A DNA stretch of 64,000 nucleotides. Origin: an uncultured Candidatus Bathyarchaeia archaeon (GTDB lineage: Archaea > Thermoproteota > Bathyarchaeia > Bathyarchaeales > Bathyarchaeaceae). Position numbers and translations under genes: made by a program. The stretch is from the NCBI GenBank assembly GCA_964418675.1, contig CAYQMM010000001.1, positions 68,892-132,891 on the forward strand. Reading direction: 5' to 3'. Under the pieces are notes generated by a model. The model saw only the letters and a list, made by a program, of their open reading frames with translations, searched no databases and had not been told where the DNA came from. Positions 11,214-44,247 of the stretch are shown here, piece by piece; position 1 is the stretch's first letter, and each line of letters begins with the position of its first letter.

Positions 11214-11214
11214 C

Positions 11215-11655: not shown

Positions 11656-11658
11656 AAT

Positions 11659-21178: not shown

Positions 21179-23569
21179 ATGCCAAACGAACCCCGAATAG
21201 GCGTATTCATCTGTCATTGTGGCGGGAACATCAGCGATACAGTAGAAGTGGAAAAAGTTAAAACAAAAATAGGCTCTCTCAAAATTGTCGAAGTCGCCGA
21301 GACTTTCGAGTACCTTTGTAGCAACCCTGGACAAGAAACGGTAATTAAAAAATCAATCAAAGACCATAACTTAAATCGAGTGATCGTGGCTTCCTGCTCC
21401 CCTAGGATGCATCTAGACACTTTTAGAGGGGCAGTGAAGTCCGCAGGAATCAACCCCTACCTTTTAGACATGGTCAACATCAGAGAACACTGTAGTTGGG
21501 TTCATGATGACCCAGAAAAAGCAACCGCGAAGACTATAGCGCTCATCCGTGGCGCCGTGGAACGAGCACGTTACTTGGAACCTCTAACTCCCCAGAGCCT
21601 GAAAGTAAAAAAAAGTGTCCTCGTAATTGGAGGAGGCATCGCAGGAATCTATTCTGCCCTAGAATTAGCGGATAAGGGCTATGACGTATACATGGTTGAA
21701 AGGACCCCCAGCATAGGAGGTCATATGGCCCAACTCAGCAAGACCTTCCCAACTTTCGACTGTTCCGCTTGTATTTTAACGCCGAAGATGGTAGCAGTAT
21801 CCCAACATCCCAAAATCAAAATTTTCACCAACGCAGAACCCATTTCCGTAAAGGGTTCTCCAGGAAACTATGAAGTAAAAATAAAAATAAAACCTAGATA
21901 TGTGAACCCTGAGAAATGTACTGCATGTGGAGAATGCGCACAAAAGTGTCCGGTTAAGAAGCCCAGCAAGTTTGAGGAAAATCTAATTCAAGAAAAAGCC
22001 ATCTACATACCGTTCAAGCAATCTATACCTAATGTCTATTCAATCGATAAAGACTATTGTCTTTATTTAACCAAGGGAGTTTGCCGAATCTGTGAAAAAT
22101 TCTGTAAGGGTGACGCGATAGACTTTACTCAAAAAGACGAATTTGTAGACTTGGATGTTGGAAGTATTATCGTCTCCACTGGCTATAGCCTGTTAGACCC
22201 TAAAGCTTTTGGTCAATACAGCTATGGTCTTCATCCAGACATTATAACAAGTCTTCAGTTTGAACGATTGATGCTGCAGGGTCTCCATAGACCCTCCACG
22301 GGAGAAGTCCCCAAAAAAGTAGCCTTCATTCTTTGCGTAGGAAGCCGCGCAACTGAAACTAAAGGAGTTGGCTATTGCTGCAAAATAGGGTGCATGAATG
22401 CAATAAAGCAGGCGTTATTGCTTGACAAGGCGGTACCCGGCGCAGAGCCCTGGGTATTCTATACTGATGTAAGGGCTCACGGTAAAGGTTACGAAGAGTT
22501 CTACGCCAAAGCCAGAGACCACCTTACGACGTTTATCCGGGGACGTGCAGCAGAGGTTATACCCAACGGAAATTCTATTACCGTAAGAGCCGAGGACACC
22601 ATTCTTGGAAAACAGATAGAAGAGAACTTTGATTTGGTTGTGCTTAGTCCCGCTCTCATTCCCAACGTTGGAACGAAAGAATTAGCTGAAATGCTTGGCA
22701 TCGATTTAGGACCTGACGATTTCTTCTTGGAGCTCCACCATAAACTTAGGGGGGTTGAAACAAAGAGAGAGGGCATTTACACTGCTGGATGTGCTCAAGG
22801 CCCGAAGGATGTAAGAGAAACCACAATGGAGTCCATGGCCACAGCATCTAAAGTTGCAACCTTACTTGGGAAAGGAAAAATATCTGTCTCCCCTGAAGTA
22901 GCTTATCTCTTACCCGAAAAATGCAATCTTTGTGAAATTTGTATTGACGTGTGTCCAACTAAAGCCATCCAGAAAGGAAAAGACGAAGTGGTAATCGACC
23001 CCATATCCTGCGTAGGATGCGGAATATGCGTTCCGTTATGCCCTGAAGAAGCAATTGATCTGAAGCACAACACGGAACATCAACTGATTGCCCAAATTCA
23101 GGGAGTAAGTGCGGAAGGAGATACATCGCCTAAAATAATAGCCTTTCTTGAGAGGATGACAGCTTATGGCTCAGCCGACTTAGGTGGACAAAGCAGACGG
23201 AGTTATCCTTCAGAAGTTAGAATAATTGGCGTTCCAAGTATAGGTCGTTTAGGCATAAAACATGTGCTACATGCCTTCGCCGCAGGAGCAGATGGCTTAA
23301 TTTTTGTTGAAGGAGACGACAGTCTGTTAGATGAAGGACAGTTAAGAGAGCAAGTAATAAAATGGAAAAAGGAAGTACGCAAATACGGAATCGAATCTCT
23401 TAGATTACAATCAATCACTACAACTCTTCCCCAATTTGAGAAAATTTTCAGTCTTTTCGACTCTTTTGTTGAACGAATCAAAAAAATTGGTCCTCTAAGC
23501 CAAGAAAAACGTGAAGAACTTAAGAAGCAACTAGCAGGTGAACAATATGCAATCCAGTACGCAACATGA
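21179..23569 (+). CDS. hdrA: HdrA-like flavoprotein (canonical domain order) fused to a cysteine-less MvhD-like C-terminal domain
   Basis: 796 aa. N-terminal Cys domain ([31 protein letters not shown]). FAD Rossmann [11 protein letters not shown] and [11 protein letters not shown]. Inserted ferredoxin ([20 protein letters not shown]) and CVGSR...YCCKIGC. C-terminal [12 protein letters not shown] / [12 protein letters not shown]. Residues from about nt 23129 align to MvhD. Confidence 0.85.
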
Positions 23570-25054: not shown

Positions 25055-25055
25055 A

Positions 25056-28649: not shown

Positions 28650-28664
28650 AAAAAAGGGAGTTCT

Positions 28665-28689: not shown

Positions 28690-28735
28690 CCTTGTTAGAT
28701 ACCATTTCAATATGCTGACATTGAGTGTTTGTTTG

Positions 28736-29287: not shown

Positions 29288-29753
29288 TTTCTAGCACTCC
29301 TTTCTTTTCTTGTTTGCTTAACAGTCCACTAGTTAGGTATATAATTTTTTCGATTGGTTTTTTTCCTATGACTTTTATGATAATTTTAGAATAAATTAAG
29401 CTGGTAACACTCTTGAAAACTGGCACAGAGGAGAGTTCAATGCCTCTTAGTAATTGGTTTTGCGTGTATCCTCAGGTTTGCAGAGAACCCTTCAAACCCG
29501 CAAAAGCGCTTCTTTGTCGCTCGATTCGCTTATTCATGCAAGACCAGCGGAGATATAACGGTTGGTGAAGTCTCCGACTTACAAAAGGTTAGCATGCCCT
29601 CAGCTAAAACCTGCTACATCATAGAAGTTTCAACAAAAATGAGGTTAGATTTGCACGGGCGGCTTGTTTATATACATCATAGCCGTATGTGAAAAGCTTT
29701 TTTGCAATAACATTTAATATGTTTTGATTTATTATGATAAACCCGAAAATGCG

Positions 29754-30710
29754 ATGACAGAGGGACGGAAACTGTCAAAGAAATCTGAAAATAAAACAGC
29801 TAGGTTTCTTGTATGGGTTAAAGAACTGAGGGCTCCCTTTTTTACAGCAGTCTTAATTCCTGTGCTCCTCGGCACTATAATGGCTTGGTTTTCGTTCGGA
29901 GCTTTTGACTCAACGTATTTTATCTTGAGTTTGATAGGCATAGTGTGCGTAAATGCTGGAACAAATCTTGCAAACGATTATTTTGACTACAAAAGCGGAT
30001 GCGATTCTGTCGATACAGATTTTAATTCACCATTCAGTGGCGGAAGTGGCTTGCTTCCCAGAGGCATTTTAAATCCCAGAAAAGTATACATCGCCTCTCT
30101 AGTTGCCTTTATTCTTGCCAGCCTTATTGGAGCATTTCTTGCTTTAACTCGAGGGTGGGTTATTGTCGTTCTCGGCCTTATCGGCGTCTTTTCAGGATAT
30201 TTCTACACTACTAAATTGGCGCCACTAGGCATTGGTGAACTCATTGTAGGCCTCAACTGCGGGCCACTCGCAGTTATAGGAAGCTATTACGTACAAACAC
30301 AAATTATCGCATTGGAACCAATAGTGGCATCCATTCCTGTAGGAATATTGATTCTTGAAGTGCTCTGGATAAACGAAATTCCAGACTACTACGCAGACGC
30401 TAAGGCTGGAAAAAAGACGCTGGTAACTAGGCTTGGAAGAAAAAGGGCTGCGGATATTTACGGCTTACTTATGTTTTTCACCTACGCTGTAATACTGCTA
30501 GGGGTCTCTCTGTCGCTGATGCCAGTGCTCACGTTACTTTCTTTTCTAACGGCTCCACTGGCTATAAGAGCAGTGTACGTTGCCAGAAGAAATTATGGAG
30601 ATCCACGCAAGCTTATTCCTGCAAATGCAACTACAGTTCTTGTGCACTTGTTCACTGGTCTGCTGTTGTGCATATCATACGTTGTCAGCGGCTACATGGC
30701 GGGTCTGTGA
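29754..30710 (+). CDS. UbiA-superfamily aromatic prenyltransferase, MenA-like
   Basis: Polytopic membrane ORF. First Asp-rich motif NLANDYFDYKSGCD, second EIPDYYADAKAGKKTLV. ATG 29754 preferred over TTG 29724. Confidence 0.75.
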   Translation: MTEGRKLSKKSENKTARFLVWVKELRAPFFTAVLIPVLLGTIMAWFSFGAFDSTYFILSLIGIVCVNAGTNLANDYFDYKSGCDSVDTDFNSPFSGGSGLLPRGILNPRKVYIASLVAFILASLIGAFLALTRGWVIVVLGLIGVFSGYFYTTKLAPLGIGELIVGLNCGPLAVIGSYYVQTQIIALEPIVASIPVGILILEVLWINEIPDYYADAKAGKKTLVTRLGRKRAADIYGLLMFFTYAVILLGVSLSLMPVLTLLSFLTAPLAIRAVYVARRNYGDPRKLIPANATTVLVHLFTGLLLCISYVVSGYMAGL

Positions 30711-31007: not shown

Positions 31008-31583
31008 ATGGAAAAAGAAGTGATAATTGATTTTGGTGATCTCGATCCGAACTTTAAATATGAGGTTTCTAGTCAACCCGGTGGTGAAAACGTAAAGCAA
31101 TGTTTTCATTGTGGTATTTGTGCCGTTTCATGCCCCGTAAGGAGAATCGACAATGACTATAACCCAAGAAAGATAATTAGAATGATTCTATACGGGATGA
31201 AGAAAGAACTGCTTTCCAGCGAAACCATATGGAAGTGCGTTCACTGTCATACCTGCTACGAACGATGTCCTCAAAATGTGAAGTTTGCTGAGGTTGTTGA
31301 GGCCTTAAAGATTCTTGCAATAAGAGAACTAGAAAAAGGGAACATCGAGATTAAGGGATCAACGTTCTTGTTTGATTCAACCTTCACAGACAGCATAAAA
31401 CATCATGGGCGAGTATTCGAGACGGGTCTAATTGTGAGGTACATGCTGAAAAGGAAGAACCTGAAATTTATGCTGTCGTATTTTCCTCTTGGGTTAAAGA
31501 TGGCTTGGAAAAGAAAACTAAAGCTGTTTCCGAATAAAGTCAAAGATCTTAAGGAAATAGATAAATTATTCAAAGAAACTTAG
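31008..31583 (+). CDS. hdrC: HdrC-like 2x[4Fe-4S] subunit
   Basis: 191 aa; CFHCGICAVSCP and CVHCHTCYERCP. Confidence 0.8.
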   Translation: MEKEVIIDFGDLDPNFKYEVSSQPGGENVKQCFHCGICAVSCPVRRIDNDYNPRKIIRMILYGMKKELLSSETIWKCVHCHTCYERCPQNVKFAEVVEALKILAIRELEKGNIEIKGSTFLFDSTFTDSIKHHGRVFETGLIVRYMLKRKNLKFMLSYFPLGLKMAWKRKLKLFPNKVKDLKEIDKLFKET

Positions 31584-31594: not shown

Positions 31595-32458
31595 GTGAAG
31601 GTTTCTTATTATCCAGGATGTTCGCTTGAATCTTCTGCAAAAGAGTATCAAATATCCGCAAACGCTGTTTGCCAGAGGCTAGATATAGAACTCGTAGAAA
31701 TTGAAGATTGGAATTGTTGTGGTGCCCTAGAAGTTAGTTCACTGAACCCGTTGCTTTCGTTGGCTCTACCAGCGAGAAATTTGAAAATCGCGTCCGAAGA
31801 GTCCGATAAGCTGGTGGTAACATGCAACGCTTGTTTGAACAATCTTGTTAAAGTCCAGTGGAAGCTTTTCAAGAATGGAGAGCTAAGAAAAAAGATAAAT
31901 CAACTTTTAAACCACGAATTTCGTGAAATAAAAATAAAGCATCTTCTAGATTTGATTTTGAATGATATAGGTCTGGAGAAGGTAAAAGAGAACGTAAAAA
32001 AACCGCTCAAAGGGTTAAAAACCGTTTCCTATTACGGCTGCCTGATAGTTAGACCATCCAAAATCCTCAATTTTGACGATCCAGACGACCCCGAGTTACT
32101 CGATAAACTCGTCTTAACTTTAGGGGGAAACCCCCTAGAGTTCTTCAGCAAAACAAAATGTTGCGGCGGTGGTTTACTCATGTCAAATCAGGACATGTCT
32201 CTGGAATTAACAAAAGAGATAATCGCCGAGGCGGCAGAACGTGGAGCACAATGTATTACGGTTACTTGTCCCCTTTGCCATATGGCACTTGAAACCTTAC
32301 AACATAAGGTTATGGCGAAAATAGGGAGCAAACGCAAGATACCCATCCTTTATTTTACGCAACTCATGGGGCTCTCATTTGGCGTCCCTCCAAAGGAGTT
32401 AGGTCTTCACAAAAATATGATTTCCGCGAAACCAGTAATTGATTTTGTCAATAGATAA
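31595..32458 (+). CDS. hdrB: HdrB-like subunit with two intact CCG domains
   Basis: 287 aa, GTG start after TAGGTGGTG. PGCSLES...WNCCGA...TCNACLN and YYGCLIVRP...KCCGGG...TCPLCHM. Confidence 0.85.
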   Translation: MKVSYYPGCSLESSAKEYQISANAVCQRLDIELVEIEDWNCCGALEVSSLNPLLSLALPARNLKIASEESDKLVVTCNACLNNLVKVQWKLFKNGELRKKINQLLNHEFREIKIKHLLDLILNDIGLEKVKENVKKPLKGLKTVSYYGCLIVRPSKILNFDDPDDPELLDKLVLTLGGNPLEFFSKTKCCGGGLLMSNQDMSLELTKEIIAEAAERGAQCITVTCPLCHMALETLQHKVMAKIGSKRKIPILYFTQLMGLSFGVPPKELGLHKNMISAKPVIDFVNR

Positions 32459-32460
32459 GA

Positions 32461-35400
32461 TTGGTGGTACTTGTGGAGCCTGTGGGTGCTGTAGCTGTAG
32501 TCGGTGGGGGGATCTCTGGGATATATGCAGCTCTCGAACTTGCAGATTCAGGTTTTAAAGTATATCTAATTGAGGGTAGCCCCACCATTGGGGGAAGAAT
32601 GCTTCAACTCGACAAAACATTTCCAACAAATGATTGCGCTATCTGCATTTTGGCTCCTAAGTTGGCTGAGGTTTCGCGGCATCCAAACATAGAGTTATTC
32701 ACATACTGCGAATTGCTGTCTGTTACTGGGAAGGCAGGAGATTTCGAAATCGAATTGCACAAGAAAGCGAGGTTTGTGGACGAGCGAAGATGCACAGGGT
32801 GTGGAACATGCTCCTCTAAGTGTCCAGTAAAAATTCCAGATGCAATGAATGAGAACATCAACCTAACAAAGTGTATAAGAATTGCCCTCCCCCAAGCAGT
32901 TCCCCTCGTCGCCCTAATTGACAAGGAAAAGTGTCTTTACTTCACCAAAAATGTTTGTCGAATATGCGAGAAAGTATGCGAAGCCAAGGCTGTGGACTTC
33001 ACCCAAAAAGACAAAAAAGTCCGATTGAAGGTTGGAAGCATTATCATTGCTGCTGGCGCAGAGGCATACAACCCCACATTCGAAACAGTATTGAATTATA
33101 AGCATGAAAATGTAGTTACATCCACGGAATTTGAGAGGCTTTTAAGCGCAAGTGGACCTACAAAGGGGTCCATAATCAAGCCTTCAGATGGCACAAAACC
33201 AAAGAAGATTGGTTTTATTCAGTGTGTTGGGTCGAGAGACCCTAGTATGGGTAGGGAATTGTGCTCCGCCGTCTGCTGTATGTACGCAACAAAAGAAGCT
33301 ATAGTAGCAAAAGAGCATGACCCAGAACTAGACGAGTACATATTTTTTATAGATCTGAGGGCTTATGGGAAGGGGTTTGAAGAGTTTGCGAAAAGAGCTG
33401 AGGACGAATATAACATCAAATACATCAGGTGCAAGGATGTTGAGGTAAAAGGGAATATAAACAGTGATTTGCTAACAATCCACTATGAGGACCCAAAAGA
33501 CAACCAATTCAAGACTATCGACCTCGATCTTGTAGTTCTTTCAGTCGGATTGAAACCACATAAATCGCTGAAAACACTTGCCAAAATGTTGAATCTGGAG
33601 CTGAATGAATACGGTTACGTGAAAACAAGCCTTGATAAACCGATGGAGACTAACATCGAAGGTGTGTATGTTTGTGGAACAGCTCAAGGTCCAAAGGACA
33701 TACCGGATTGTGTAGCACAGGCATGTGGAGCTGCTGCAAAGACTAAGGCTCTACTTTCTTCTACGAGAAACCAGTTAACCATTGAGAAAGTATTTCCAAA
33801 AGAACGCAAGATAGCGGAAGAGCCCAGAATAGGTGTGTTTGTTTGTAACTGCGGCATAAACATTGGGGGGGTCGTAAATGTACCTGAAGTGGTCAAATAT
33901 GTTAGCACGCTAGACAATGTTATTCACTGTGAAGAAAACCTTTACACATGCTCGCAGGAAACGCTGGAAAGAATAAAAGAGGTCATAGAAAAAAGGGAAT
34001 TGAACAGAATCATAGTTGCATCGTGCACTCCAAGAACTCATGAACCTCTCTTCCAAAACACCTTGAGGGAAGCCGGTTTAAACCCCTATCTCTTTGAATT
34101 CTGTAACATCCGCGAACAATGCTCTTGGGTGCACATGAATCAAAAAGAAAGAGCTACGGAGAAGGCTAAGAATCTCATCGAAATAGCGGTTGCCAAGGCA
34201 AAATTGTTGACGCCACTCCAAAGACGAATGACCCCCATTACTCAGAAGGCGCTGGTGTTGGGCGGAGGCATTTCTGGGATGACTGCAAGCCTAGATATTG
34301 CGAATCAAGGGTTCGAAGTTTTTCTCGTTGAAAAAAACACTACACTGGGAGGGTTTATCAAGAACCTATGGCAAATCCAAGGTGGAACTAGGACATCTGA
34401 TATCCTAGAAGAAATTGTTCGAAAAGTGAAGAGTAATCCGCGGATAAAGATATTCTTCGAATCAGAAGTGAAAGCAGTTACAGGTCATGTCGGTGACTTC
34501 AAGGCAACAATAACTACTCCGAAAGGCTCTGAGGAAATTGAATTTGGAACCGCCATCATCGCTGTTGGAGCCGACGTTCTTGTACCAACAGGATACTACC
34601 ATTATGGAGAAAACGATAGAATAATCATTCAAAAAGACTTGGAACAGATGTTTGAGAAAGGTTTCAACGCAAAGGCTGTTGTCATGATCCAGTGTGTCGG
34701 TTCTAGGGAAAATGAAGGTAGAACCTACTGCTCAAGGGTTTGTTGTAGTGAAGCCATAAAGAATGCAATAAACATTAAGAAGATGAGTCCAGAAACGGAC
34801 GTGTATATACTATACAAAGATGTTAGGGCATATGGAATCTGGGAGACCATTTACAACACCGCGAGAAGTATGGGCGTAGTTTTCATTAGGTATACAGACG
34901 AACACAAACCATCCGTAGACCCTGAAAATCTATCCGTTACAGTTGATGAACTCCTATTGAAGGAAAAGTTGATACTCCACCCAGATTATGTGGTTCTGAG
35001 TAGCGCAATAACTTCACGTGAGGACTACGAAAAAATAAGCAGACTATTCAAGGTTCCTCTGGACCCCAACGGTTTCTTTTTGGAGGCTCATGTGAAGCTT
35101 AGGCCTGTTGACTTTGCAACGGATGGGGTGTTTGTTTGTGGAACCGCCCATTATCCGAAGATGATATACGAGAGCATAGCGCAGGCGAGCGCAGCGGCGT
35201 CAAGAGCTACTACAATCCTCTCAAAGGATTATAGTGAAAGCGAGGTGATCATCAGCCGCGTGACAGATAAAGAAAAATGTATAGGCTGCGAACTTTGTGT
35301 GTTTTTATGTCCATTCAACGCTGTCGAAATTGGTGACGATGGAAAAGCAGAAGTTATTTTGGCGGCATGCAAAGGTTGTGGTATTTGCACCGCGTCATGC

Positions 35401-35481
35401 CCAGAAAAAGCAATCAGCATTACCCATTTCACTGATGAACAACTCGTATCGCAGATAAGGGCGGCGAAGGTGATCTCATGA
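32461..35481 (+). CDS. hdrA: Tandem-fused HdrA-like flavoprotein (two thioredoxin-reductase-like FAD modules in one chain), copy 1
   Basis: 1006 aa. Module 1: VVGGGISGIY, FPTNDCAICIL, inserted ferredoxin CTGCGTCSSKCP / CRICEKVC, CVGSRD...CSAVCCMYATK. Then an HdrA N-terminal-type Cys domain in mid-chain (RIGVFVCNCGINIGG, ASCTPRTHE, REQCSWVH). Module 2: LVLGGGISGMT, CVGSRENEGRTYCSRVCC. C-terminal CIGCELCVFLCP / CKGCGICTASCP. Confidence 0.85.
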   Translation: MVVLVEPVGAVAVVGGGISGIYAALELADSGFKVYLIEGSPTIGGRMLQLDKTFPTNDCAICILAPKLAEVSRHPNIELFTYCELLSVTGKAGDFEIELHKKARFVDERRCTGCGTCSSKCPVKIPDAMNENINLTKCIRIALPQAVPLVALIDKEKCLYFTKNVCRICEKVCEAKAVDFTQKDKKVRLKVGSIIIAAGAEAYNPTFETVLNYKHENVVTSTEFERLLSASGPTKGSIIKPSDGTKPKKIGFIQCVGSRDPSMGRELCSAVCCMYATKEAIVAKEHDPELDEYIFFIDLRAYGKGFEEFAKRAEDEYNIKYIRCKDVEVKGNINSDLLTIHYEDPKDNQFKTIDLDLVVLSVGLKPHKSLKTLAKMLNLELNEYGYVKTSLDKPMETNIEGVYVCGTAQGPKDIPDCVAQACGAAAKTKALLSSTRNQLTIEKVFPKERKIAEEPRIGVFVCNCGINIGGVVNVPEVVKYVSTLDNVIHCEENLYTCSQETLERIKEVIEKRELNRIIVASCTPRTHEPLFQNTLREAGLNPYLFEFCNIREQCSWVHMNQKERATEKAKNLIEIAVAKAKLLTPLQRRMTPITQKALVLGGGISGMTASLDIANQGFEVFLVEKNTTLGGFIKNLWQIQGGTRTSDILEEIVRKVKSNPRIKIFFESEVKAVTGHVGDFKATITTPKGSEEIEFGTAIIAVGADVLVPTGYYHYGENDRIIIQKDLEQMFEKGFNAKAVVMIQCVGSRENEGRTYCSRVCCSEAIKNAINIKKMSPETDVYILYKDVRAYGIWETIYNTARSMGVVFIRYTDEHKPSVDPENLSVTVDELLLKEKLILHPDYVVLSSAITSREDYEKISRLFKVPLDPNGFFLEAHVKLRPVDFATDGVFVCGTAHYPKMIYESIAQASAAASRATTILSKDYSESEVIISRVTDKEKCIGCELCVFLCPFNAVEIGDDGKAEVILAACKGCGICTASCPEKAISITHFTDEQLVSQIRAAKVIS

Positions 35482-36263
35482 AAGAAGAGAATGATGAAAA
35501 AGATTTTGAACCCTTGATAATTGCGTTCTTATGTAACTGGTGTTCCTACGCGGGAGCAGATTTTGCCGGGGTTTCGAGGTATCAGTATCCCACAAGCATA
35601 AGGATCATTAAGGTTATGTGTAGCGGTAGAGTTGACCCGTTCCTAATTTTTGAGGCATTTCGTGATGGCGCCGACGGCGTTTTGGTGGCTGGATGCCACC
35701 TAGGAGACTGCCACTATATATCGGGTAACATCGAGGCGCAGCAGAAGATGAAATATGTTGTAAGAGCTATCGAAAGAAGCAAGATTCCTCTACAACGATT
35801 TAGATACAAATGGATCTCTGCGTCGGAAGGAAAGCTTTTTGCGGCGACTATTGCCGAGTTTACTGAGGAACTGAAAAAATTAGGGCCTATTTCCAAGGAA
35901 GTCATAGACGGCGTTCCTACCCTGGATAAGATAGTTGCTGCTGAAAATGAGTTCTTAGACTTCACAGTAAGGTGGATGATAGGTAAAGAGAAAATACTTT
36001 TAGAGGAAGGGAATGTTTATGGAGAGGCGCTCGATCCCGACCATTTAACAAATATAGTCAACGAAGTTGTAGACACAAAATATCTGAAATTTCTTATTCT
36101 GAGGATGATCAAGGATACGCCGCTCTCAGTTGCCGATCTTTCGGAAAAACTGGAAATTGAACCGAGAGAGACCTTCGACTGCTTAATGCAGTTGAAAAAT
36201 GAAGGATCCGTCGGTATAGTTGGCTTCAAGGATGATTATCCCATTTTTCAAGTAATAAGGTGA
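35478..36263 (+). CDS. mvhD: MvhD-like [2Fe-2S] subunit with about 120-aa C-terminal extension ending in a winged-helix-like segment
   Basis: 261 aa. Core FLCNWCSYAGADFAG...VMCSGRVD...GCHLGDCHY. Tail LILRMIKDTPLSVADLSEKLEIEPRETFDCLMQLKNEGSV. Confidence 0.8.
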   Translation: MKEENDEKDFEPLIIAFLCNWCSYAGADFAGVSRYQYPTSIRIIKVMCSGRVDPFLIFEAFRDGADGVLVAGCHLGDCHYISGNIEAQQKMKYVVRAIERSKIPLQRFRYKWISASEGKLFAATIAEFTEELKKLGPISKEVIDGVPTLDKIVAAENEFLDFTVRWMIGKEKILLEEGNVYGEALDPDHLTNIVNEVVDTKYLKFLILRMIKDTPLSVADLSEKLEIEPRETFDCLMQLKNEGSVGIVGFKDDYPIFQVIR

Positions 36264-36271
36264 ATTATCAT

Positions 36272-39200
36272 ATGAAAGGTTCTGTGCTGGTCGTAGGTGG
36301 GGGAATAGCCGGGATTCAAGCATCCTTGGATCTCGCAGATTCAGGTTTCAAAGTTTACCTTATCGATCAAAAACCTAGCATAGGAGGAACCATGCCTCAG
36401 CTGGACAAGACGTTTCCAACAAACGACTGTGCCATGTGCATTTTGTCACCAAAACTGGTTAACACATACAGGCATCCGAACATAGAAATAATAGGTAACG
36501 CTGACATCATTGATTTTAGTGGTGCTCCAGGGGATTTCAAGGTAAAACTGTTGAAAAGACCGAGATACGTCGACCCTGAAAAATGCAACGGTTGTGGAGA
36601 ATGTGCACAATCTTGTCCGGTTAGGGCTCTCGATGCCTTCAACAGAAATCTCAGTAAGAAAAGCGCCATATCCGTGATGTATCCCCAAGCAGTTCCCCTC
36701 GTTTACTCCATCGACAGAAACGCATGCATTGGATGCGGACTTTGCGAGAAAGTCTGCAAAAGAAAAGCTATAGATTACGACCAGCAGACTAGCCCAACTG
36801 AATTGAACGTTGGAGCCGTCATTCTCGCAACTGGTGCAGGACTTTTTGATCCGTCAACCATGAAAAAATATGGGTATCACTATGCAGATGTGATTACGAG
36901 CGCTGAGTTTGAAAGAATTTTAAGCGCCAGCGGCCCCTACGGAGGTGTCGTCCTTCGTCCTTCAGACGGAAAAAGACCTAAAACCATTGGGTTTATTCAA
37001 TGTGTCGGCTCGAGGAACCCTAGCATTGGTAGGGAATTGTGCTCCGCCGTCTGCTGTATGTACGCAACAAAAGAAGCTATAGTAGCAAAAGAACACGACC
37101 CAGAACTGGACATAACAATCTTCTACATAGACTTACGCGCTTTTGGGAAGGGATTCGAAGAATTTACTGAGAGGGCAATGAGAGAATATGGCATAAAATA
37201 CGTAAGGTGTGAAGTTCCAGAGGTATCTCTCAATAAAGACAAGAGTGGTCTCACAGTTTTCTACGAAGACCCCGTTACTAATGAACTTAAAAGCATGGAT
37301 TTAGATTTACTTGTTCTCTCAGTGGGATTGACCCCTCCCAGCACGCTTCTTTCGCTCAAAGAAATTATGGGTTTGGAACTAAACGATTTCGGATATGTGA
37401 ATACTAGACTAACCAGTCCCGTAGAAACTAATATTACAGGGATATATGTTTGTGGCGCATCCCAAGGACCAAAGGACATTCCTGATTCAGTTGCACAGGC
37501 GAGCGCAGCAGCTGCAAAGGCAGAGGTGCTTCTATCTTCTGCAAGGAATCAGCTGATTACAACTAAGGAGTATCCGAAAGAGAAGGCTATTCCAGAAGAA
37601 CCAAGAATTGGGGTTTTCGTTTGTCACTGTGGCATAAACATCGGAGGAATAGTGGACGTCCGAGAAGTGGTCGAATACGTGAAAAAATTACCATATGTGG
37701 TTCATGCAGAGAGAAACCTATACACGTGTTCTCAGGACACCCAGGAAAGAATAAAGGAAGTCATAATAGAAAAGAATTTGAACCGGGTTATAGTCGCATC
37801 TTGTACTCCGAGAACTCATGAATCCATCTTCAGGAACACTTGCAGAGAAGCTGGTTTAAACCAATATCTTTTCGAGTTCTGCAACATTAGGGAGCAGTGT
37901 TCATGGGTTCACATGAGGGATAAGAAGAGTGCGACAGAAAAAGCAAAAGATATCCTTAGGATGGGTGTTGCAAGGGCTAGATTTTTGAAGCCTCTTGAAA
38001 CTAAGTTAATTTCTGTAAAGAAGAGTGCTCTGGTCATTGGTGGTGGCATTTCAGGGATGACGGCGAGCTTGGATATTGCAAATCAGGGCTTCGAAGTCTA
38101 TCTTATAGAAAAGCGAGATCAGCTCGGCGGATTTGTACGAAATATAGAAGAGATGCAGGATGGAACCAAGGCAATTGAAATCCTTGAAGAAATAATAAAG
38201 AAGGTTGAAAATCACCCAAAAATCAGAGTATTCAAGAATTCAGAGGTCATGGAAGTCGAAGGTTTCGTCGGAAACTTTAAGGCAAAAATCAACACGGAAA
38301 GAAAAGTGGAAGAAGTGGAATTTGGAGCAGCGATAATTGCGGTTGGGGCGGAGATGCTAGAACCCCAAGGTCTCTTTCACTATGGAGAAAGTAACAAAAT
38401 CATTACTCAAAAAATGTTGGAACCTATGATAACAGGAAAATGGATGTGGGATGAAAAGAGGGGTGTAAAGACTGTTGTTATGATCCAATGTGTAGGTTCC
38501 AGGGACGAAAATAGACCGTACTGTTCCAGAGTTTGTTGTACAGAGGCAATAAAAAACGCTATCAGAATTAAGAAACTAAACCCTGACACTGAAGTCTACA
38601 TACTGTACCGGGACATACGTGCATACGGGCTGTGGGAAGCACTATACAGAGAGGCAAGAGACCTTGGAGTAATCTTCTTGAGTTATACTAATGAAAATAG
38701 CCCTTCGGTTAATCCAAAGAATTTGACAGTTGAGATATATGATCCAATGTTCAATTCGAAATTGAGATTGAGGCCAGACCTCATAGTTCTGAGTAGCGCA
38801 ATAGTGCCGAGAGACGATTATGATGAACTAAGCAAAATTTTCAAGGTTCCTCTGGACCCCAACGGTTTCTTTTTGGAGGCTCATGTGAAGCTTAGGCCTG
38901 TTGACTTTGCAACGGATGGGGTGTTTGTTTGTGGAACCGCCCATTATCCGAAGATGATATACGAGAGCATAGCGCAGGCGAGCGCAGCGGCGTCCCATGC
39001 CTGCACAATATTATCGAAGGATTGCATAGAATCTGAAGGTGCCGTCGGGGTGGTTGATGAGGAGAAATGTAAGGGATGTGGCATTTGTGTTGAGATTTGT
39101 CCCTTCAAGGCAATAGAACTTCAGCCCGAGGAAATGATCCTAGAGAAGGTTAAGTTCCTAACAAGGAAGGCGTATATTAACCCCATAACCTGCAAGGGCT

Positions 39201-39367
39201 GTGGATCCTGTGCAGTAGCATGCCCCGTCGGAGCAATAACACCTCAGCACTTTTCAAAACAACAAATCGAGGCAAGCTTACAAGCAGCCATCATAAAATC
39301 TCAAGAGACCGCGGATTTACTCTCCGTACCAATGGTCGAAAAAACTCAAAAAAGTTCGGGTAGTTAA
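36272..39367 (+). CDS. hdrA: Tandem-fused HdrA-like flavoprotein, copy 2
   Basis: About 1031 aa. ATG 36272 is preceded by AGGTGA; GTG 36260 is an alternative. Same domain order as copy 1 (VVGGGIAGIQ, FPTNDCAMCIL, CNGCGECAQSCP, CVGSRN...CSAVCCMYATK, RIGVFVCHCGINIGG, LVIGGGISGMT, CVGSRDENRPYCSRVCC, CKGCGICVEICP / CKGCGSCAVACP). Confidence 0.85.
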   Translation: MKGSVLVVGGGIAGIQASLDLADSGFKVYLIDQKPSIGGTMPQLDKTFPTNDCAMCILSPKLVNTYRHPNIEIIGNADIIDFSGAPGDFKVKLLKRPRYVDPEKCNGCGECAQSCPVRALDAFNRNLSKKSAISVMYPQAVPLVYSIDRNACIGCGLCEKVCKRKAIDYDQQTSPTELNVGAVILATGAGLFDPSTMKKYGYHYADVITSAEFERILSASGPYGGVVLRPSDGKRPKTIGFIQCVGSRNPSIGRELCSAVCCMYATKEAIVAKEHDPELDITIFYIDLRAFGKGFEEFTERAMREYGIKYVRCEVPEVSLNKDKSGLTVFYEDPVTNELKSMDLDLLVLSVGLTPPSTLLSLKEIMGLELNDFGYVNTRLTSPVETNITGIYVCGASQGPKDIPDSVAQASAAAAKAEVLLSSARNQLITTKEYPKEKAIPEEPRIGVFVCHCGINIGGIVDVREVVEYVKKLPYVVHAERNLYTCSQDTQERIKEVIIEKNLNRVIVASCTPRTHESIFRNTCREAGLNQYLFEFCNIREQCSWVHMRDKKSATEKAKDILRMGVARARFLKPLETKLISVKKSALVIGGGISGMTASLDIANQGFEVYLIEKRDQLGGFVRNIEEMQDGTKAIEILEEIIKKVENHPKIRVFKNSEVMEVEGFVGNFKAKINTERKVEEVEFGAAIIAVGAEMLEPQGLFHYGESNKIITQKMLEPMITGKWMWDEKRGVKTVVMIQCVGSRDENRPYCSRVCCTEAIKNAIRIKKLNPDTEVYILYRDIRAYGLWEALYREARDLGVIFLSYTNENSPSVNPKNLTVEIYDPMFNSKLRLRPDLIVLSSAIVPRDDYDELSKIFKVPLDPNGFFLEAHVKLRPVDFATDGVFVCGTAHYPKMIYESIAQASAAASHACTILSKDCIESEGAVGVVDEEKCKGCGICVEICPFKAIELQPEEMILEKVKFLTRKAYINPITCKGCGSCAVACPVGAITPQHFSKQQIEASLQAAIIKSQETADLLSVPMVEKTQKSSGS

Positions 39368-39381: not shown

Positions 39382-40404
39382 TTACGTGATTTCTTCGGAT
39401 TTTAGGATTATGTCAACTTTGGCTGCTGCACAACTTCCCTGTGCAATAGAGTAAGCGATGTCTTTTAACCCGCTAGCTGCACCGGCTACAAAAACACCTT
39501 TTACGTTTGTGCCAACTGGCCTTTCGACTACCTGAAAAAATCCTGAATCCGATAACTCGAGATTCAACTTATCCTTGAAAAAAACAGTAGCTGGATCAGG
39601 AACTCCGCCGGTAGAAAGTACCACAAGGTCGGACTCGAGGAAAACTAAATCATTCTCTAATGTATCTTCCACCTGAACCAAAAAAGCATCCTTGACTTTC
39701 CGGACTCTAGCAGGTTTTCCTCTGAGAAATCGGACGCCCAACAGTCTAGCATTATTATAGTCAAACTCGCCTTTATATGGAGCTCTTATGTCCATATACA
39801 ATATGGTTATCATCATTTCTGGGTGCATTTTTTTGATCTGCTGTGCGAACTTAATGGCATACATGCAGCAAAAGGAGGAGCAGTAGGTATTCGTATTGTT
39901 GTCCCTTGAGCCGACACATTGGATTATAGATATGGAAGTTGGTCTCTTCAAATCTGAAGGTCTTACGAGGTTTCCCTTCTTGACCATTTCTTCCAACTCC
40001 AAAGAGGTTACCACATCCTTATATTTGCCATATCCATACCGCCTCAAAGGTGAAGGGTCATAAGGTTTGAACCCAATAGCCAAGACAACGGCATTGACAC
40101 CTAGGCTCTTTTCCTCATTTAAACTCTTCACTTTAACCTTGAACTCTGGAAATTTTCCTGTAACGTCCAGAATTTCAGAGTTCTTCACGACCGTGATGTT
40201 CTCCTTGTCCTCAATCTCGCTCAAAAGGCTCGAAAGCAGATCCGATGCCTTCTCACCCGTTGGGAAGAGTTCACCTAGGTTCTTCAGGTTTCCTCCAAGT
40301 TGGTGCTCTCTCTCGACCAGAAAAACATGGTGTCCAAAGTCTGCGAGATCCAGTGAAGCTTGAAGACCCGCAACTCCAGAACCAACCACTAATACTCTAC
40401 TCAT
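39382..40404 (-). CDS. hdrA: Minimal HdrA-like FAD/[4Fe-4S] protein (thioredoxin-reductase-like core only)
   Basis: 340 aa; VLVVGSGVAGLQ, IQCVGSRDNNTNTYCSSFCCMYAIK. No N-terminal Cys domain, no ferredoxin inserts, and no FPTxDCxxC cysteines (LFPTGEKASD instead). Confidence 0.8.
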   Translation of the reverse strand: MSRVLVVGSGVAGLQASLDLADFGHHVFLVEREHQLGGNLKNLGELFPTGEKASDLLSSLLSEIEDKENITVVKNSEILDVTGKFPEFKVKVKSLNEEKSLGVNAVVLAIGFKPYDPSPLRRYGYGKYKDVVTSLELEEMVKKGNLVRPSDLKRPTSISIIQCVGSRDNNTNTYCSSFCCMYAIKFAQQIKKMHPEMMITILYMDIRAPYKGEFDYNNARLLGVRFLRGKPARVRKVKDAFLVQVEDTLENDLVFLESDLVVLSTGGVPDPATVFFKDKLNLELSDSGFFQVVERPVGTNVKGVFVAGAASGLKDIAYSIAQGSCAAAKVDIILKSEEIT

Positions 40405-40834
40405 TCATAGCACCAACGGTTTTTCGCATAGGATTAGGTTCTAACTCTTTCAACTCGTCCGTAAATTCTCTAATCACGCTTGCGAATTTCGGTCCTTCAG
40501 AAGCAGATATCCACTCCAGTCTTAATCTTTTGGCTTCAAACCCCACATATTCTAAGGCTTTCATCGTTTCCCTTATCCTCTTTTCAGTTTTGTAGTTGCC
40601 TTCAATATAGTGGCAGTCACCTAGATGGCAGCCTGCAACGAGAACTCCGTCTGCTCCCCTGAGAAAAGCTTTCAAAATGAAGGCTGGATCAACTCGACTT
40701 GAGCACATCACTCGTATTATCCTTATTGTAGGAGGATATTGAATTCTACTAACCCCTGCTAAATCTGCCCCCGCGTAGGAACACCAGTTACATGCAAAAA
40801 CCACAATTCTCGGTTCAAACTCGTTCCTAGTCAT
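40397..40834 (-). CDS. mvhD: MvhD-like [2Fe-2S] subunit
   Basis: 145 aa; FACNWCSYAGADLAG...VMCSSRVD...GCHLGDCHY. Confidence 0.85.
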   Translation of the reverse strand: MTRNEFEPRIVVFACNWCSYAGADLAGVSRIQYPPTIRIIRVMCSSRVDPAFILKAFLRGADGVLVAGCHLGDCHYIEGNYKTEKRIRETMKALEYVGFEAKRLRLEWISASEGPKFASVIREFTDELKELEPNPMRKTVGAMNE

Positions 40835-40841
40835 TAATTAA

Positions 40842-41903
40842 TCACCTTTTGTCAATTAATTCTGTCAAGAAAACCGTTAGATCTTTAACATCAATGTCAA
40901 AATCTTTTATCGGCGGTTTTTCATTCTTCACGCAATTCAGATGCGCATAACATTTTGGGCACGCAGTAATTAGCGTCTTTGAATCTGTATCTATTGCCCT
41001 TTCCAGTTTTTCCACCATTAGAAACTTGCCCTCTGGATTACATGAAATCCACGCAGATACCCCACAACATTGTGCATCTTCCCTGGACTCATCAAGTTCT
41101 TTGAATGTGAGACCTTTCACTTTTGACAGCACATTTCTAGGTGCATCATACACTCCCATGTGTCTGCCAAGCCTACATGGGTCATGGTATGTGACTGTGG
41201 TGCCGTTGGTTTCAATGTCTAATTTATCCCTGTTTTTCTCAAGTATTTGGGATATGTGTTTTATCTCCAAGTCAAGTTCGTAATCTTTTGAAAATGTTCT
41301 GAAACATTCTGCGCAAGAGGTGACGAGAGTTTTGATACCGCTTTCATTTATTTTTGCTTCATTGTACTTTCTTAGTGCATTGAAAGTAGCGTTATAGCCC
41401 TGCCAGAGTGCGTCGTGCCCGCAGCATTTTAAGGATAAAATTCTGGGTTTGATATCAATTAGGTTTAGTAGCGTGATGCTTGACTCACCGATCGCATGGA
41501 AATCTACGCCGACATCTAAAAAACAGTCAAAAAAGTCGAGACAGCCAGGGAAATAAGCAATGTCACTGTTTTGATCTATTTCTCCTTTGAAGTCTGTAGG
41601 CACTCCATGAGCATCAGGATATTTCGTCATGATTTCGCAGATAAGTGAAAAAATTGATTTATGAGCGATTACTTCTTCATCAACCTCTTGGTTTCTCAGG
41701 TCTCGAACAAAGTCTACGTAGTTAACCTCTTGTGGGCAGTACTGTGAACAAAGTCCGCAGGTAAGACATTCCCACGAGACCTCTCTTTTATTCTCCAATA
41801 GAAACTTGTTAATTTTGAAGCGAGGGGAATACTTAGAAATCCGCCTTCTTGGGCAAATTCCTGTGCACAGCCCGCATTGGTAACAACTATTTATCAGCGA
41901 CAT
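40842..41903 (-). CDS. Fused HdrC/HdrB-like protein (HdrD/GlpC-like): 2x[4Fe-4S] plus two CCG domains
   Basis: 353 aa. N-terminal CYQCGLCTGICP, CLTCGLCSQYCP. Then FPGCLDFF...KCCGHD...SCAECFR and HDPCRLGR...QCCGVS...ACPKCYA. Confidence 0.8.
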   Translation of the reverse strand: MSLINSCYQCGLCTGICPRRRISKYSPRFKINKFLLENKREVSWECLTCGLCSQYCPQEVNYVDFVRDLRNQEVDEEVIAHKSIFSLICEIMTKYPDAHGVPTDFKGEIDQNSDIAYFPGCLDFFDCFLDVGVDFHAIGESSITLLNLIDIKPRILSLKCCGHDALWQGYNATFNALRKYNEAKINESGIKTLVTSCAECFRTFSKDYELDLEIKHISQILEKNRDKLDIETNGTTVTYHDPCRLGRHMGVYDAPRNVLSKVKGLTFKELDESREDAQCCGVSAWISCNPEGKFLMVEKLERAIDTDSKTLITACPKCYAHLNCVKNEKPPIKDFDIDVKDLTVFLTELIDKR

Positions 41904-42915
41904 GTATTCCCCTCAAGAGTTTGTTTATTTGAGATGCGACAGCACCCGCCTGCGCTAGAGAATAGTCTATATCTTTTGGGCCACAGGCTGCACCTACCAC
42001 AAAAACTCGATTTGCATCTGTACCCAAAGGTCTATTGTGAACCTTGAAAAACCCCGTACCGTCCAATGAAACCTTCATCATCTGACTTAACTCCTCTGTT
42101 TCTGGAGGAGGAATTCCCCCAACGGACAGAACGACCAAGTCAGATTCAATGCTGTGCGGTTCGCTCGTCAAAGTGTCCTCGAAATTGAGGACTAATTTAT
42201 TATCTTTTTCGAAAATTTCTGCTGGTCTAGCCCTAATGAACTTCACGCCGATGTTTCTAGCATCCAAATATAGATTCTCATAGAGGTAAGGGGTTCTGAT
42301 GTCCATGTACATAACCCTTACTTCTATGTCAGGATATTCTCTTTTAATAAGAAGTGCATTTTTCACAGCTAGAGTACAACAAAAATAGGAACAATATCTA
42401 TATGCCTGAGCATCTCTAAATCCAACGCACTGAACAAATGTTACCGATTTGGGCTTCTCAGAGTTCGAGGGTCTTATCAGCTTTCCTTCTTTCATCACTC
42501 TTTCCAGGTCTACTGAAGTTATCACATCTCCATACCTGTTGTATCCATATTCCGTCTTTTCTGTTGGATCATAAGGAACAAAGCCTGTTGCAAGAACTAT
42601 TGCATCAACGTCGAAGGTGTCATGCTTACCTGCGGCGTCGATTGTAACTCTGAAAGCACGGGCTTTTTCTTCAAACTTGCAGAGAGTTGAATCCGTCAGG
42701 ATTGATATGTTATCGTGTGTTTTTGCTTTTTCCTTGAAGGTGGAGAGAAATTCCTCTGCTCTCTCGTTTGTAGGAAGGATTTTGTATAGATTCTTCAGAT
42801 TGCCTCCTAGTTCTCCTTCCTTCTCGACTAGGTATACCCGATGGCCCATATTAGCTAAGTCTAATGAAGACTGAACCCCAGCGATACCGCCGCCTACCAC
42901 CAACACTCTACCCAT
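41887..42915 (-). CDS. hdrA: Minimal HdrA-like FAD/[4Fe-4S] protein (thioredoxin-reductase-like core only)
   Basis: Start at ATG 42915 (MGRVLVVGGGIAGVQ), overlapping the hdrB stop in ATGGGTAG. VQCVGFRDAQAYRYCSYFCCTLAVK. The ORF-track 5' extension lies inside hdrB. Confidence 0.8.
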   Translation of the reverse strand: MGRVLVVGGGIAGVQSSLDLANMGHRVYLVEKEGELGGNLKNLYKILPTNERAEEFLSTFKEKAKTHDNISILTDSTLCKFEEKARAFRVTIDAAGKHDTFDVDAIVLATGFVPYDPTEKTEYGYNRYGDVITSVDLERVMKEGKLIRPSNSEKPKSVTFVQCVGFRDAQAYRYCSYFCCTLAVKNALLIKREYPDIEVRVMYMDIRTPYLYENLYLDARNIGVKFIRARPAEIFEKDNKLVLNFEDTLTSEPHSIESDLVVLSVGGIPPPETEELSQMMKVSLDGTGFFKVHNRPLGTDANRVFVVGAACGPKDIDYSLAQAGAVASQINKLLRGIHVADK

Positions 42916-43783
42916 TGGAAACCCCCAGTTTCTCCAAGAATTTATCCGTGGGTATCTTGTGGATAACGTTAAGTCCGAGGTCCTTTGCGTCAAATCCGAG
43001 AGCCAGCCCAAGAAGTTCGGCATAAAAGAGTATGGGAACGTTCAATTCTTTGTTGAACTTCTTTTTGGCGACAACTTGTCCAATATCGAACTGTTTGAAA
43101 CAGAATGGACAACCGACCACTATTGCATCGACCACGCCTTTTCTTTCAATAGACTCTATTGCCAATAACTGTGCGGCATCTAAATCACAAAGTGACAGAA
43201 CCGATCCACAACATTGTTCGGTCCCCACCGGCCTAACAATTCTGGCTCCTGTTAATGCCACAAGTTCTTCAAGTTTCTTCGGGTTTTCGGGGTCATCGAA
43301 TCCAAGAACATCGCTTGGTCTGAGGATGTGGCAACCATTATGACAGGAGACAGATATGTCATTCAAGTTAAAAACTATCTTTTCCTTAATCTTTGAAGGC
43401 CCAACGATATCGTACATCAGTTGGTGAAAGTGAAACACCCGTGATTTTCCTTTGTAGGATAGACCTATTTTTTTCAGAGTCTTGTCGACTCTATTTCTCA
43501 GATAAGTGTCTCTTAGCGCGAAAATTGCTTTATTCAATGAAGAGAAACACCCGTTACACAAAGTTAAAATGTCTAGACCCTCCTTCTCCGCTAGGGCAAT
43601 ATTTCTCGCAGAGAAAACTAGGGATGTGTAATAATCCATAGCTTCTGTAAGCTCACCGCAACAACCAAAATCCGCGATGTCTACAAGCTTAATCTTAAAG
43701 GCATCTGCAATTTTCCTGACCGAAGCTTCATAATTGTAAACCTGAGTTGGAACATTACACCCGAGAAAAAATGCAAGCTTCAT
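42908..43783 (-). CDS. hdrB: HdrB-like subunit with two intact CCG domains
   Basis: 291 aa; LGCNVPT...FGCCGE...LCNGCFS and CHNGCHILRP...QCCGSV...GCPFCFK. Confidence 0.85.
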   Translation of the reverse strand: MKLAFFLGCNVPTQVYNYEASVRKIADAFKIKLVDIADFGCCGELTEAMDYYTSLVFSARNIALAEKEGLDILTLCNGCFSSLNKAIFALRDTYLRNRVDKTLKKIGLSYKGKSRVFHFHQLMYDIVGPSKIKEKIVFNLNDISVSCHNGCHILRPSDVLGFDDPENPKKLEELVALTGARIVRPVGTEQCCGSVLSLCDLDAAQLLAIESIERKGVVDAIVVGCPFCFKQFDIGQVVAKKKFNKELNVPILFYAELLGLALGFDAKDLGLNVIHKIPTDKFLEKLGVSNG

Positions 43784-44247
43784 CGGACCAGCTCCGCCAA
43801 TCCGGTTATTTTAGCGATTTCCTTAAAGTCCTTCGAAACATCTGCTTTCAGTTCTGGCAGCCCCAAACCCCCTCTTTTTTGCGCAGTAAATTTAGTGATG
43901 TCACTACTGCGACCTACGGCTAGAATTTTCTTATTTCCTTCCTTCAGAGATGACGGGACAGATCCATTTTGCGATATAAGATTTGTTATGGAATGTACAA
44001 CTTCAATTGGCTTGATTTCTTGAGGGCATCGCTCATAACATATATAGCAAGTGAGGCAGTACCAGAGGAATTTATTGTTAATATCAATTCTGTTTTCTTT
44101 TTTATGTTTGACTATTTTTCTTATATTGTATTCAGGGACCAGCCTTGTAACCGGACATCCACCAGTGCATGTTCCACACTGATAACATAGATGGAGATTA
44201 TCCATATTATGATTCTCATTTATTTCATTCGAGGAACCTTTGTCCAT
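43780..44247 (-). CDS. hdrC: HdrC-like 2x[4Fe-4S] subunit
   Basis: 155 aa; CYQCGTCTGGCP and CLTCYICYERCP. A TTTATATC TATA-like box lies about 16 nt upstream of ATG 44247. ATG 44205 is an alternative start. Confidence 0.8.
   Translation of the reverse strand: MDKGSSNEINENHNMDNLHLCYQCGTCTGGCPVTRLVPEYNIRKIVKHKKENRIDINNKFLWYCLTCYICYERCPQEIKPIEVVHSITNLISQNGSVPSSLKEGNKKILAVGRSSDITKFTAQKRGGLGLPELKADVSKDFKEIAKITGLAELVR

Follow-up and report, generated by a model that had tools for sequence, protein, structure and literature searches.

The two open reading frames of about 1,000 codons considered here, designated L1 and L2, lie on the plus strand of a 64-kb stretch of DNA from an uncultured Candidatus Bathyarchaeia archaeon (64,000 nucleotides of contig CAYQMM010000001.1, referred to as the window). 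Their translations place both proteins in the fused, type II HdrA family, and each chain is probably a covalent, asymmetric HdrA pseudo-dimer with two flavin adenine dinucleotide (FAD) cofactors and seven [4Fe-4S] clusters predicted per polypeptide. An earlier note on this DNA had described two open reading frames of this size with a shared domain order, and every motif that it quoted was found in the translations. Coordinates of the genes and domains are collected in Table 1.

L1 opens with a thioredoxin reductase (TrxR)-like FAD module. This module carries FPTNDCAICIL at residues 54 to 64, with the cysteine pair C59/C62; an inserted ferredoxin (residues ~101 to 185) with cysteines 111/114/117/121 and 158/166/169/173; and the CVGSR...CSAVCC motif, whose cluster cysteines are 255/268/272/273, together with E225 and K278. 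The Cys domain of the HdrA N terminus, which the earlier note had placed at about residue 450, spans residues 453 to 590 and has the motifs RIGVFVCNCGINIGG (456 to 470), ASCTPRTHE (520 to 528), and REQCSWVH (551 to 558). As had also been read from the sequence, the second FAD module has neither the Cys pair nor the inserted ferredoxin but keeps CVGSR...YCSRVCC (cluster cysteines 745/757/761/762), along with E624, E728, and K767. The chain ends in a 2x[4Fe-4S] ferredoxin, as the same reading had proposed and as both Pfam and the Cys spacing (940/943/946/950 and 970/973/976/980) confirm. L2 has the same layout (module 1, residues 7 to 433; N-terminal-type domain, 446 to 583; module 2, 584 to 923; C-terminal ferredoxin, 924 to ~1014, followed by a 20-residue tail) and is 60% identical to L1 from end to end. 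In the inserted ferredoxin of L2, the motif at the second cluster is the canonical CIGCGLCEKVC. Pfam recognizes two GxGxxG/Pyr_redox stretches in each of the long proteins.

The two TrxR modules of L1 are clearly homologous to each other (29 to 39% identity, E = 4e-24), and because of this homology we interpret the long proteins as head-to-tail fusions of two differently truncated HdrA units. The halves were aligned separately with the canonical HdrA of the window, a 796-residue protein, and with M. thermolithotrophicus HdrA, whose sequence was rebuilt from a PDB alignment. The N-half of L1 (residues 9 to 440) corresponds to residues ~145 to 567 of M. thermolithotrophicus HdrA, with C59/C62 at the positions of C194/C197 and E225/K278 at those of E356/K409. 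A PDB sequence search matched this module to HdrA residues 148 to 510, and it also aligns with the N-half of the BamE-like protein described below. The C-half (446 to 1006) corresponds to residues 1 to 236 plus 315 to 647; within it, residues 453 to 590 align to HdrA residues 2 to 174 and to residues 1 to ~140 of the 796-residue HdrA, and the C-terminal ferredoxin aligns to HdrA residues 503 to 647. The C-half is also colinear with the 796-residue HdrA, and this alignment has a single large gap, at the place of the Cys pair and the ferredoxin insert. Thus, in the domain-by-domain alignment that the earlier note had advised, both halves are colinear with characterized HdrA apart from terminal and internal deletions, which rules out a true circular permutation. 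The rearranged order that had been called "permuted" is real; it arises from head-to-tail fusion of truncated units and not from permutation.

The losses in the two halves are complementary. The N-half keeps the Cys pair, the insert, and the TrxR cluster but is without either terminal domain (the N-terminal Cys domain or the ferredoxin of the C terminus); these two domains are present in the C-half, which has lost the Cys pair and the insert. L2 is equivalent in these respects. The complementary losses support the earlier suggestion that a tandem fusion of nonidentical halves yields an asymmetric dimer, as does an April 2026 cryo-electron microscopy (cryo-EM) preprint on the Geobacter class II benzoyl-CoA reductase (10.64898/2026.04.10.717634), in which BamE is described as "a fused HdrA dimer." When ligand sets are counted by motif, each chain has two FAD sites and seven [4Fe-4S] sites, in line with the 2 FAD and about 7 clusters that had been estimated; BamE carries 2 FAD and clusters E1 to E7.

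L1 and L2 are not canonical type I HdrAs, as they have two modules and the chains open directly with GxGxxG. The NCBIfam HdrA2 model matches the long proteins in three stretches in rearranged order, and the HdrA/HdrA2 scores of 1004 and 1053 fall under the curated cutoff of 1100. The 64-kb window gave no indication for or against the use of CoM-S-S-CoB by the host (MCR or coenzyme M/B pathways). The AlphaFold2 single-chain model of L1 has a mean predicted local distance difference test score (pLDDT) of 87.2 and a predicted template modeling score of 0.89. When this model was searched against the PDB with Foldseek, the only strong matches were HdrA chains and the minimal sHdrA, and both halves matched HdrA. 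No structure of a fused HdrA was found in the PDB by sequence or fold, the BamE entries (29QY, 29RC, and 29RN) being outside the searched set.

Proteins of this kind have been described before. Chadwick 2022 (PMC9012536) reported HdrA homologues of more than 1,000 amino acids in anaerobic methanotrophic archaea (ANME), designated HdrA3/4, that were considered "their own heterodimeric partners," and Padalko et al. 2024 found double-HdrA fusions to be frequent in TACK and Asgard archaea. Lyu, Yu & Lu 2025 introduced the name "type II HdrA" and analyzed the halves separately, concluding that there was a single ancient fusion of two type I classes; the phylogeny of separated halves that the earlier note had envisaged is in this way already published. 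Kremp et al. 2022 described acetogen HdrAs with the same C-part lacking the inserted ferredoxin, and the fused HdrA of Moorella is credited with two FAD (Mock 2014, as cited by Buckel and Thauer 2018). Public sources already contain this architecture, the idea of a pseudo-dimer, a separate analysis of the halves, and an experimental structure of a homologue. The value of the window in this regard is confirmatory, in that a reading of raw sequence reached the conclusion published from comparative genomics and cryo-EM.

Type II HdrAs are common in uncultured anaerobes, including Bathyarchaeia, Asgard archaea, ANME, and sulfate reducers. A protein search listed 120 clusters, of which more than 100 were full length (~1,000 residues); among the clusters listed, these cover 98 to 100% of L1 at 52 to 91% identity, and their sources include Methanoperedens, Bathyarchaeota, and Methanosarcinales. 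In a scan of species-representative genomes, at least 599 stretches passed a tblastn threshold of E <= 1e-3, and the best 80 loci were kept. All 80 have full-length colinear matches, with best-segment identities of 44 to 88%. Archaeal loci among the best 80 come from Bathyarchaeia, ANME-2, Methanoperedens, Methanosarcina, Thermoplasmata, Asgard archaea, and Archaeoglobi, and bacterial loci come from Desulfobacterales, Chloroflexi, Planctomycetota, and Firmicutes. L1 is 50 to 55% identical to the Methanoperedens and ANME-2 copies. The best of the 80 loci (88% identity) is in an independent Bathyarchaeia metagenome-assembled genome, designated L001, in which the genes on both strands are likewise uninterrupted and identically ordered, with amino acid identities of 82 to 91%. 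In tblastn, the type II hdrA genes of three Desulfobacterales loci (L035, L043, and L051) look split, an appearance that may be due to in-frame selenocysteine (Sec) codons.

No evidence was found that the long reading frames are assembly or frameshift artefacts that join two hdrA genes, and we see practically no chance that they are. Neighboring hdrA genes that are unfused and show complementary losses are known elsewhere (HdrA5/6 and HdrA12/13 in ANME). L1 and L2, which are two paralogues in the window, share one junction; the same reading frames run uninterrupted through L001; more than 100 clusters of ~1,000 amino acids from many sources align over nearly the whole query; and the residues of the junction linker are conserved, with R436 and E448 invariant and P446 present in at least 90% of 81 homologues. 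BamE, moreover, is a purified protein of ~1,000 amino acids with a structure. The junction that is kept in both paralogues, in L001, and in the protein clusters rules out a frameshift or misassembly, and it counters the possibility, raised earlier, that a stop near residue 440 had been missed.

The mechanism that we infer for L1 and L2 comes from homology. In the canonical complexes resolved by cryo-EM, each flavin core (the FAD, the Cys pair, and clusters HA4 and HA5/HA6) is served by an arm that belongs to the other protomer. By analogy, the C-half of a fused HdrA would be the mobile arm, composed of the N-terminal-type domain with the shuttle cluster (HA3/E3) and the C-terminal ferredoxin that docks MvhD (HA1/HA2, E1/E2). 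The N-half would be the catalytic core, with a bifurcating FAD next to K278/E225, the C59/C62 pair, the TrxR cluster, and the inserted ferredoxin. Since the C-half has exactly the parts of an arm and the N-half exactly the parts of a core, one chain could build one complete bifurcation unit. Electrons would enter from the [2Fe-2S] cluster of MvhD and pass through the clusters of the C-terminal ferredoxin to the first FAD. The high-potential electron would then move through the Cys255/268/272/273 cluster to HdrC, HdrB, and a disulfide-type acceptor, and the low-potential electron would move through the C59/C62 pair, the shuttle cluster, and the clusters of the inserted ferredoxin, with ferredoxin or a partner as the recipient. 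The role of the second FAD and its own cluster might mainly be to hold the pseudo-dimer together. Of the two symmetric bifurcation units in a canonical HdrA2 dimer, we infer that one chain would keep one, and bifurcation is probably confined to the first flavin, the second being structural. This arrangement is the one reported for BamE, in which the TrxR1 flavin is bifurcating (Lys280, Cys59-Cys62) and the TrxR2 flavin is nonbifurcating and structural (Gln768) (10.64898/2026.04.10.717634).

A different possibility is that both flavins of each chain bifurcate, so that two bifurcation reactions take place per polypeptide, as Lyu 2025 suggested. The equivalents of E356/K409 are present in both modules of L1 and L2 (E225/K278 and E728/K767), the GxGxxG motif and the TrxR [4Fe-4S] cluster are kept in both, and Lyu 2025 reported that 75% of type II sequences have both residues. 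We nevertheless regard two-flavin bifurcation as distinctly unlikely. Module 2 is without a Cys pair, an inserted ferredoxin, and a partner arm, and the N-half has neither the N-terminal nor the C-terminal domain. The BamE-like protein also keeps the Lys, yet the second FAD in the BamE cryo-EM structure is not at the branching point. In addition, the signature of module 2 is relaxed across the family. C59, C62, E225, and K278 of module 1 are invariant in 60/60 full-length relatives, in all of which both GxGxxG motifs and both sets of TrxR-cluster cysteines are also kept, whereas the counts for E728 and K767 are 52/60 and 50/60. This pattern of conservation is consistent with one bifurcation unit per chain.

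Several points weigh against a single-unit pseudo-dimer as we have described it. K767 and E728 are retained at the second flavin in L1 and L2, so a catalytic role for that flavin is compatible with the sequence, and the position of BamE Gln768 is occupied by E764 in L1. No hydrogenase, Fdh, or BamGHI-type input module was found in the 64-kb window. Lyu 2025 noted that type II HdrA was so far without biochemistry. Finally, the order of the halves reported by Chadwick 2022 (PMC9012536) is opposite to that in L1 and L2: the N-terminal half of HdrA3/4 is said there to carry the N-terminal FeS domain and to be without Cys197. We found the reverse of that order in every sequence examined, including the ANME-2 locus L003, and the order that we observed agrees with Lyu 2025 and with BamE.

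The MvhD encoded between L1 and L2 is of a long form that resembles BamF. Its [2Fe-2S] MvhD domain (residues 10 to 137; Pfam FlpD, 14 to 136) matches 5odh_D in Foldseek with a TMt of 0.90 and 55% identity and is followed by an extension of ~120 residues. The end of this extension (residues ~187 to 259) is modeled as three helices and a beta-hairpin, a winged helix (AlphaFold2 pLDDT, 90.6), and has weak Foldseek matches (E of about 0.02 to 0.04) to winged helix-turn-helix (HTH) proteins such as 1ku9, SmtB, and Z-alpha. Long MvhDs of 256 to 265 residues are widespread, and some relatives have HTH matches in Pfam. BamF itself is an MvhD more than 100 amino acids longer than usual, whose winged helix docks BamI (10.64898/2026.04.10.717634). 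Among the 80 loci, L036, from a Geobacter sp., represents a true bam cluster, with genes for an AOR, an Fe-S protein, an HdrD-like protein, a type II HdrA, NuoE- and NuoF-like proteins, and a long MvhD in which an in-frame TGA occupies the Sec position. The BamF-like gene of this locus (11120-11917) has its TGA (FLCTW*AY) at the published Sec19 position, and the TGA is the expected selenocysteine codon. The long MvhD of the window aligns with this BamF-like protein over 92% of its own length and reads FLCNWC, with C22 at the BamF Sec19 position.

This resemblance raises the question of whether L1 and L2 are BamE orthologues in a class II benzoyl-CoA reductase locus. L1 is 46% identical to the BamE-like protein of L036 over residues 11 to 1002 with no rearrangement, and C59, C62, K280, and Q768 of BamE correspond to C59, C62, K278, and E764 of L1 after a constant offset of 2. 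The full-length identity and the BamF-like MvhD speak for orthology. The genetic context speaks against it, and we consider it very improbable. The 64-kb window has no gene for BamB (AOR), BamC, or BamGHI (NuoEFG-like), and separate hdrC and hdrB genes lie upstream of L1 in place of a fused bamD. In tblastn, BamB/C/G/H probes detected bam clusters at 17 or more of the best 80 loci and matched nothing in L001, the closest of the 80. The long MvhD has Cys at the Sec position of BamF. In a rough neighbor-joining tree, L1 and L2 fall outside the bam clade and group with the HdrB-linked copies of Methanoperedens, ANME-2, and Methanosarcinales. We reject a benzoyl-CoA reductase identity because BamB, BamC, BamG, and BamH are missing from the window, and L1 and L2 are, from their sequence relationships, type II HdrAs and not BamE orthologues.

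The tandem order of a type II HdrA, a long MvhD, and a second type II HdrA on one strand recurs at 16 of the 80 loci, in both Bacteria and Archaea (Bathyarchaeia, Thermoplasmata, Asgard archaea, Dehalococcoidia, and Desulfobacterales), and the middle MvhD is of the long form in 16/16. The earlier note had described two long genes flanking a single mvhD; there is indeed one mvhD between them, but it is the 261-residue long form, and the minus strand carries another mvhD, a short one, at 40397-40834. Twelve complete pairs were compared (the window, L001, L007, L010, L011, L012, L017, L019, L024, L033, L068, and L072). For the inserted ferredoxin, the motif of the second cluster is the canonical C-x2-C-x2-C-x3-C (CIGCGxC) in the downstream copy of 12/12 pairs and a C-x7/8-C variant (CLYxTKxxC, an insertion of 5 or 6 residues) in the upstream copy of 11/12. 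The variant is also found in BamE and in most single-copy members. When position-specific residues that separate upstream from downstream copies were sought, only this indel passed. The motif difference suggests that the two copies could be nonequivalent partners of one complex. In the neighbor-joining tree, which was used to ask if upstream and downstream copies make up two ancient clades, archaeal pairs group by lineage and Desulfobacterales pairs group by position.

One extension of the pseudo-dimer interpretation, which would not replace it, is that L1, the long MvhD, and L2, possibly with HdrBC and the short MvhD, form one supercomplex in which two HdrA-type bifurcation modules operate in series and the winged helix docks L2 as BamF docks BamI. 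The recurrence of the tandem order with a long MvhD, the copy-specific ferredoxin motif, the translational coupling of L1, mvhD, and L2, and the role of the BamF extension as an adaptor between modules all favor it, and Lyu 2025 speculated on two bifurcation events. On the other side, the archaeal copies within a pair are closer to each other (0.61 to 0.74) than to copies elsewhere, a similarity that fits recent duplication into isoenzymes as well, and the window has no short mvhD downstream of L2 on its strand. For the window, we consider a supercomplex possible but doubtful. The general form of the idea, that the tandem order, usually followed by a short MvhD, encodes a supercomplex in which a long MvhD bridges two nonequivalent fused HdrAs with their modules in series, also seems to us unlikely. 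This interpretation of the tandem module is the only part of the analysis that may be new.

Comparison with characterized systems places these proteins more precisely. Canonical HdrA (MvhADG-HdrABC; PDB 5ODC, 8RVU, and 7BKB) shares with L1 and L2 the four domain types, the cofactor ligands, and the E356/K409 signature. However, it is a symmetric homodimer of ~650-residue chains, each with 6 clusters and 1 FAD, that has two active units, whereas L1 and L2 are single chains with 7 clusters and 2 FAD predicted and one complete unit at most. BamE (Geobacter metallireducens, BamBCDEFGHI) is likewise a single chain of ~1,000 residues with two TrxR/FAD modules and seven [4Fe-4S] clusters, which are assigned by motif in L1, and its partner is also a long MvhD with a winged helix; BamE is encoded by one gene, in contrast to the two tandem paralogues of the window. 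HdrA3 and HdrA4 (Chadwick 2022; Lyu 2025) resemble L1 and L2 in that an A6-like unit, without an N-terminal domain or C-terminal ferredoxin, is fused to a unit that bears the N-terminal domain. The complementary pattern of Cys197 and the N-terminal domain is the same, and hdrBC and mvhD adjoin the genes. Unlike the best-described archaeal type II cluster, L1 and L2 have no adjoining genes for FdhB or a molybdopterin protein, and unlike HdrA3/HdrA4 they form a tandem pair around a long MvhD. The HdrA of the MetFV-HdrABC-MvhD complexes of Moorella thermoacetica and Sporomusa ovata also has an extra N-terminal TrxR module before an insert-less HdrA-like part. In contrast to L1 and L2, the N-half of the S. 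ovata HdrA is without the inserted ferredoxin, with 5 clusters predicted, and the Moorella HdrA, of 163 kDa, has a GltD insertion. Both are associated with metFV, which the L1/L2 locus does not have.

The genes hdrC, hdrB, L1, long mvhD, and L2 form a tightly packed, translationally coupled operon on the plus strand (Table 1). The L1 stop and the long mvhD start overlap as ATGA. The hdrC-like gene has an orthologue at the same position in L001 (86% identity). The annotated start of L1 is a TTG; in-frame GTG codons at 32464, 32473, and 32482 also lie 5' of the first GxGxxG. The probable start of L2 is an ATG at 36272, which lies 8 nucleotides past the long mvhD stop and is preceded by AAGGTGA; counted from there, the protein has 1,031 residues. 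The L001 orthologue of L2 is also 1,031 residues long.

Table 1. Coordinates of genes and domains in the window
Feature	Position	Strand	Description
Reference HdrA-MvhD fusion	21179..23569	+	796 aa; canonical order; HdrA2 / type Ia
hdrC-like	31008..31583	+	191 aa; 2x[4Fe-4S] dicluster; first gene of the operon; Pfam Fer4_8/Fer4_17
hdrB-like	31595..32458	+	287 aa; Pfam CCG x2; stop 3 nt ahead of L1 start
L1, type II (fused) HdrA	32461..35481	+	1006 aa
L1 module 1	32485..33780	+	aa 9-440; TrxR/FAD fold; GGGISG 15-20
L1 HdrA N-terminal-type (MvhD-like) Cys domain	33817..34230	+	aa 453-590; Cys 462/464/497/522/554
L1 module 2	34231..35235	+	aa 591-925; TrxR/FAD fold; GGGISG 601-606
L1 C-terminal 2x[4Fe-4S] ferredoxin	35236..35478	+	aa 926-1006; Pfam Fer4/Fer4_7 at 934-987
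Long MvhD, BamF-like	35478..36263	+	261 aa
L2, second type II (fused) HdrA	36260..39367	+	1035 aa counted from GTG
Convergent Hdr-like operon	39382..44247	-	Pfam and minimal-HdrA alignment

Two further Hdr loci are present in the window. The 796-residue protein used as a reference has the canonical domain order, as the earlier note had stated, and meets the canonical type I definition, but it is not a plain HdrA: Pfam places an additional FlpD domain at residues 653 to 771, which makes it an HdrA-MvhD fusion. Its TrxR-cluster motif is YCCKIGC and not C-x3-CC. It heads a third Hdr cluster (21179-26153) in which hdrC, hdrB, and an FrhB/FdhB-like gene (369 residues) follow at 23538-26153, and its gene content resembles the F420H2-dependent HdrA2B2C2 type. 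The convergent operon on the minus strand, whose arrangement is also conserved in L001, encodes an HdrC of 155 residues, an HdrB of 291, a minimal HdrA of 378, an HdrD-like CB fusion of 353, an MvhD of 145, and a second minimal HdrA of 340. That MvhD gene is the only short mvhD near L2. The minimal HdrAs consist of just the TrxR/FAD fold with the [4Fe-4S] cysteines and the E/K signature, and they resemble the sHdrA of sulfur oxidizers (PDB 6TJR).

Between the first two hdr clusters (26803-30710) are genes for a polyprenyl synthetase, an ArsR-type HTH/ATC-hydrolase-like fusion, and a UbiA-family prenyltransferase. An alanyl-tRNA synthetase gene at 52651-54447 encodes just 598 residues, with catalytic and SAD domains; the SAD domain is at the extreme C terminus, and no further C-terminal domain match was found. 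Archaeal housekeeping genes are found in the remainder of the 64-kb window, which most likely belongs to a Bathyarchaeia chromosome.

Fused HdrAs illustrate that a symmetric electron-bifurcating dimer may be reducible to a single asymmetric unit. If the two copies of the tandem module cooperate, then coupled bifurcation modules would extend beyond benzoyl-CoA reductase. The supercomplex, should it exist, would amount to an analogue of the BamGHI-BamE coupling made up entirely of Hdr proteins, and non-methanogenic archaea and bacteria could use it to reach very low potentials.

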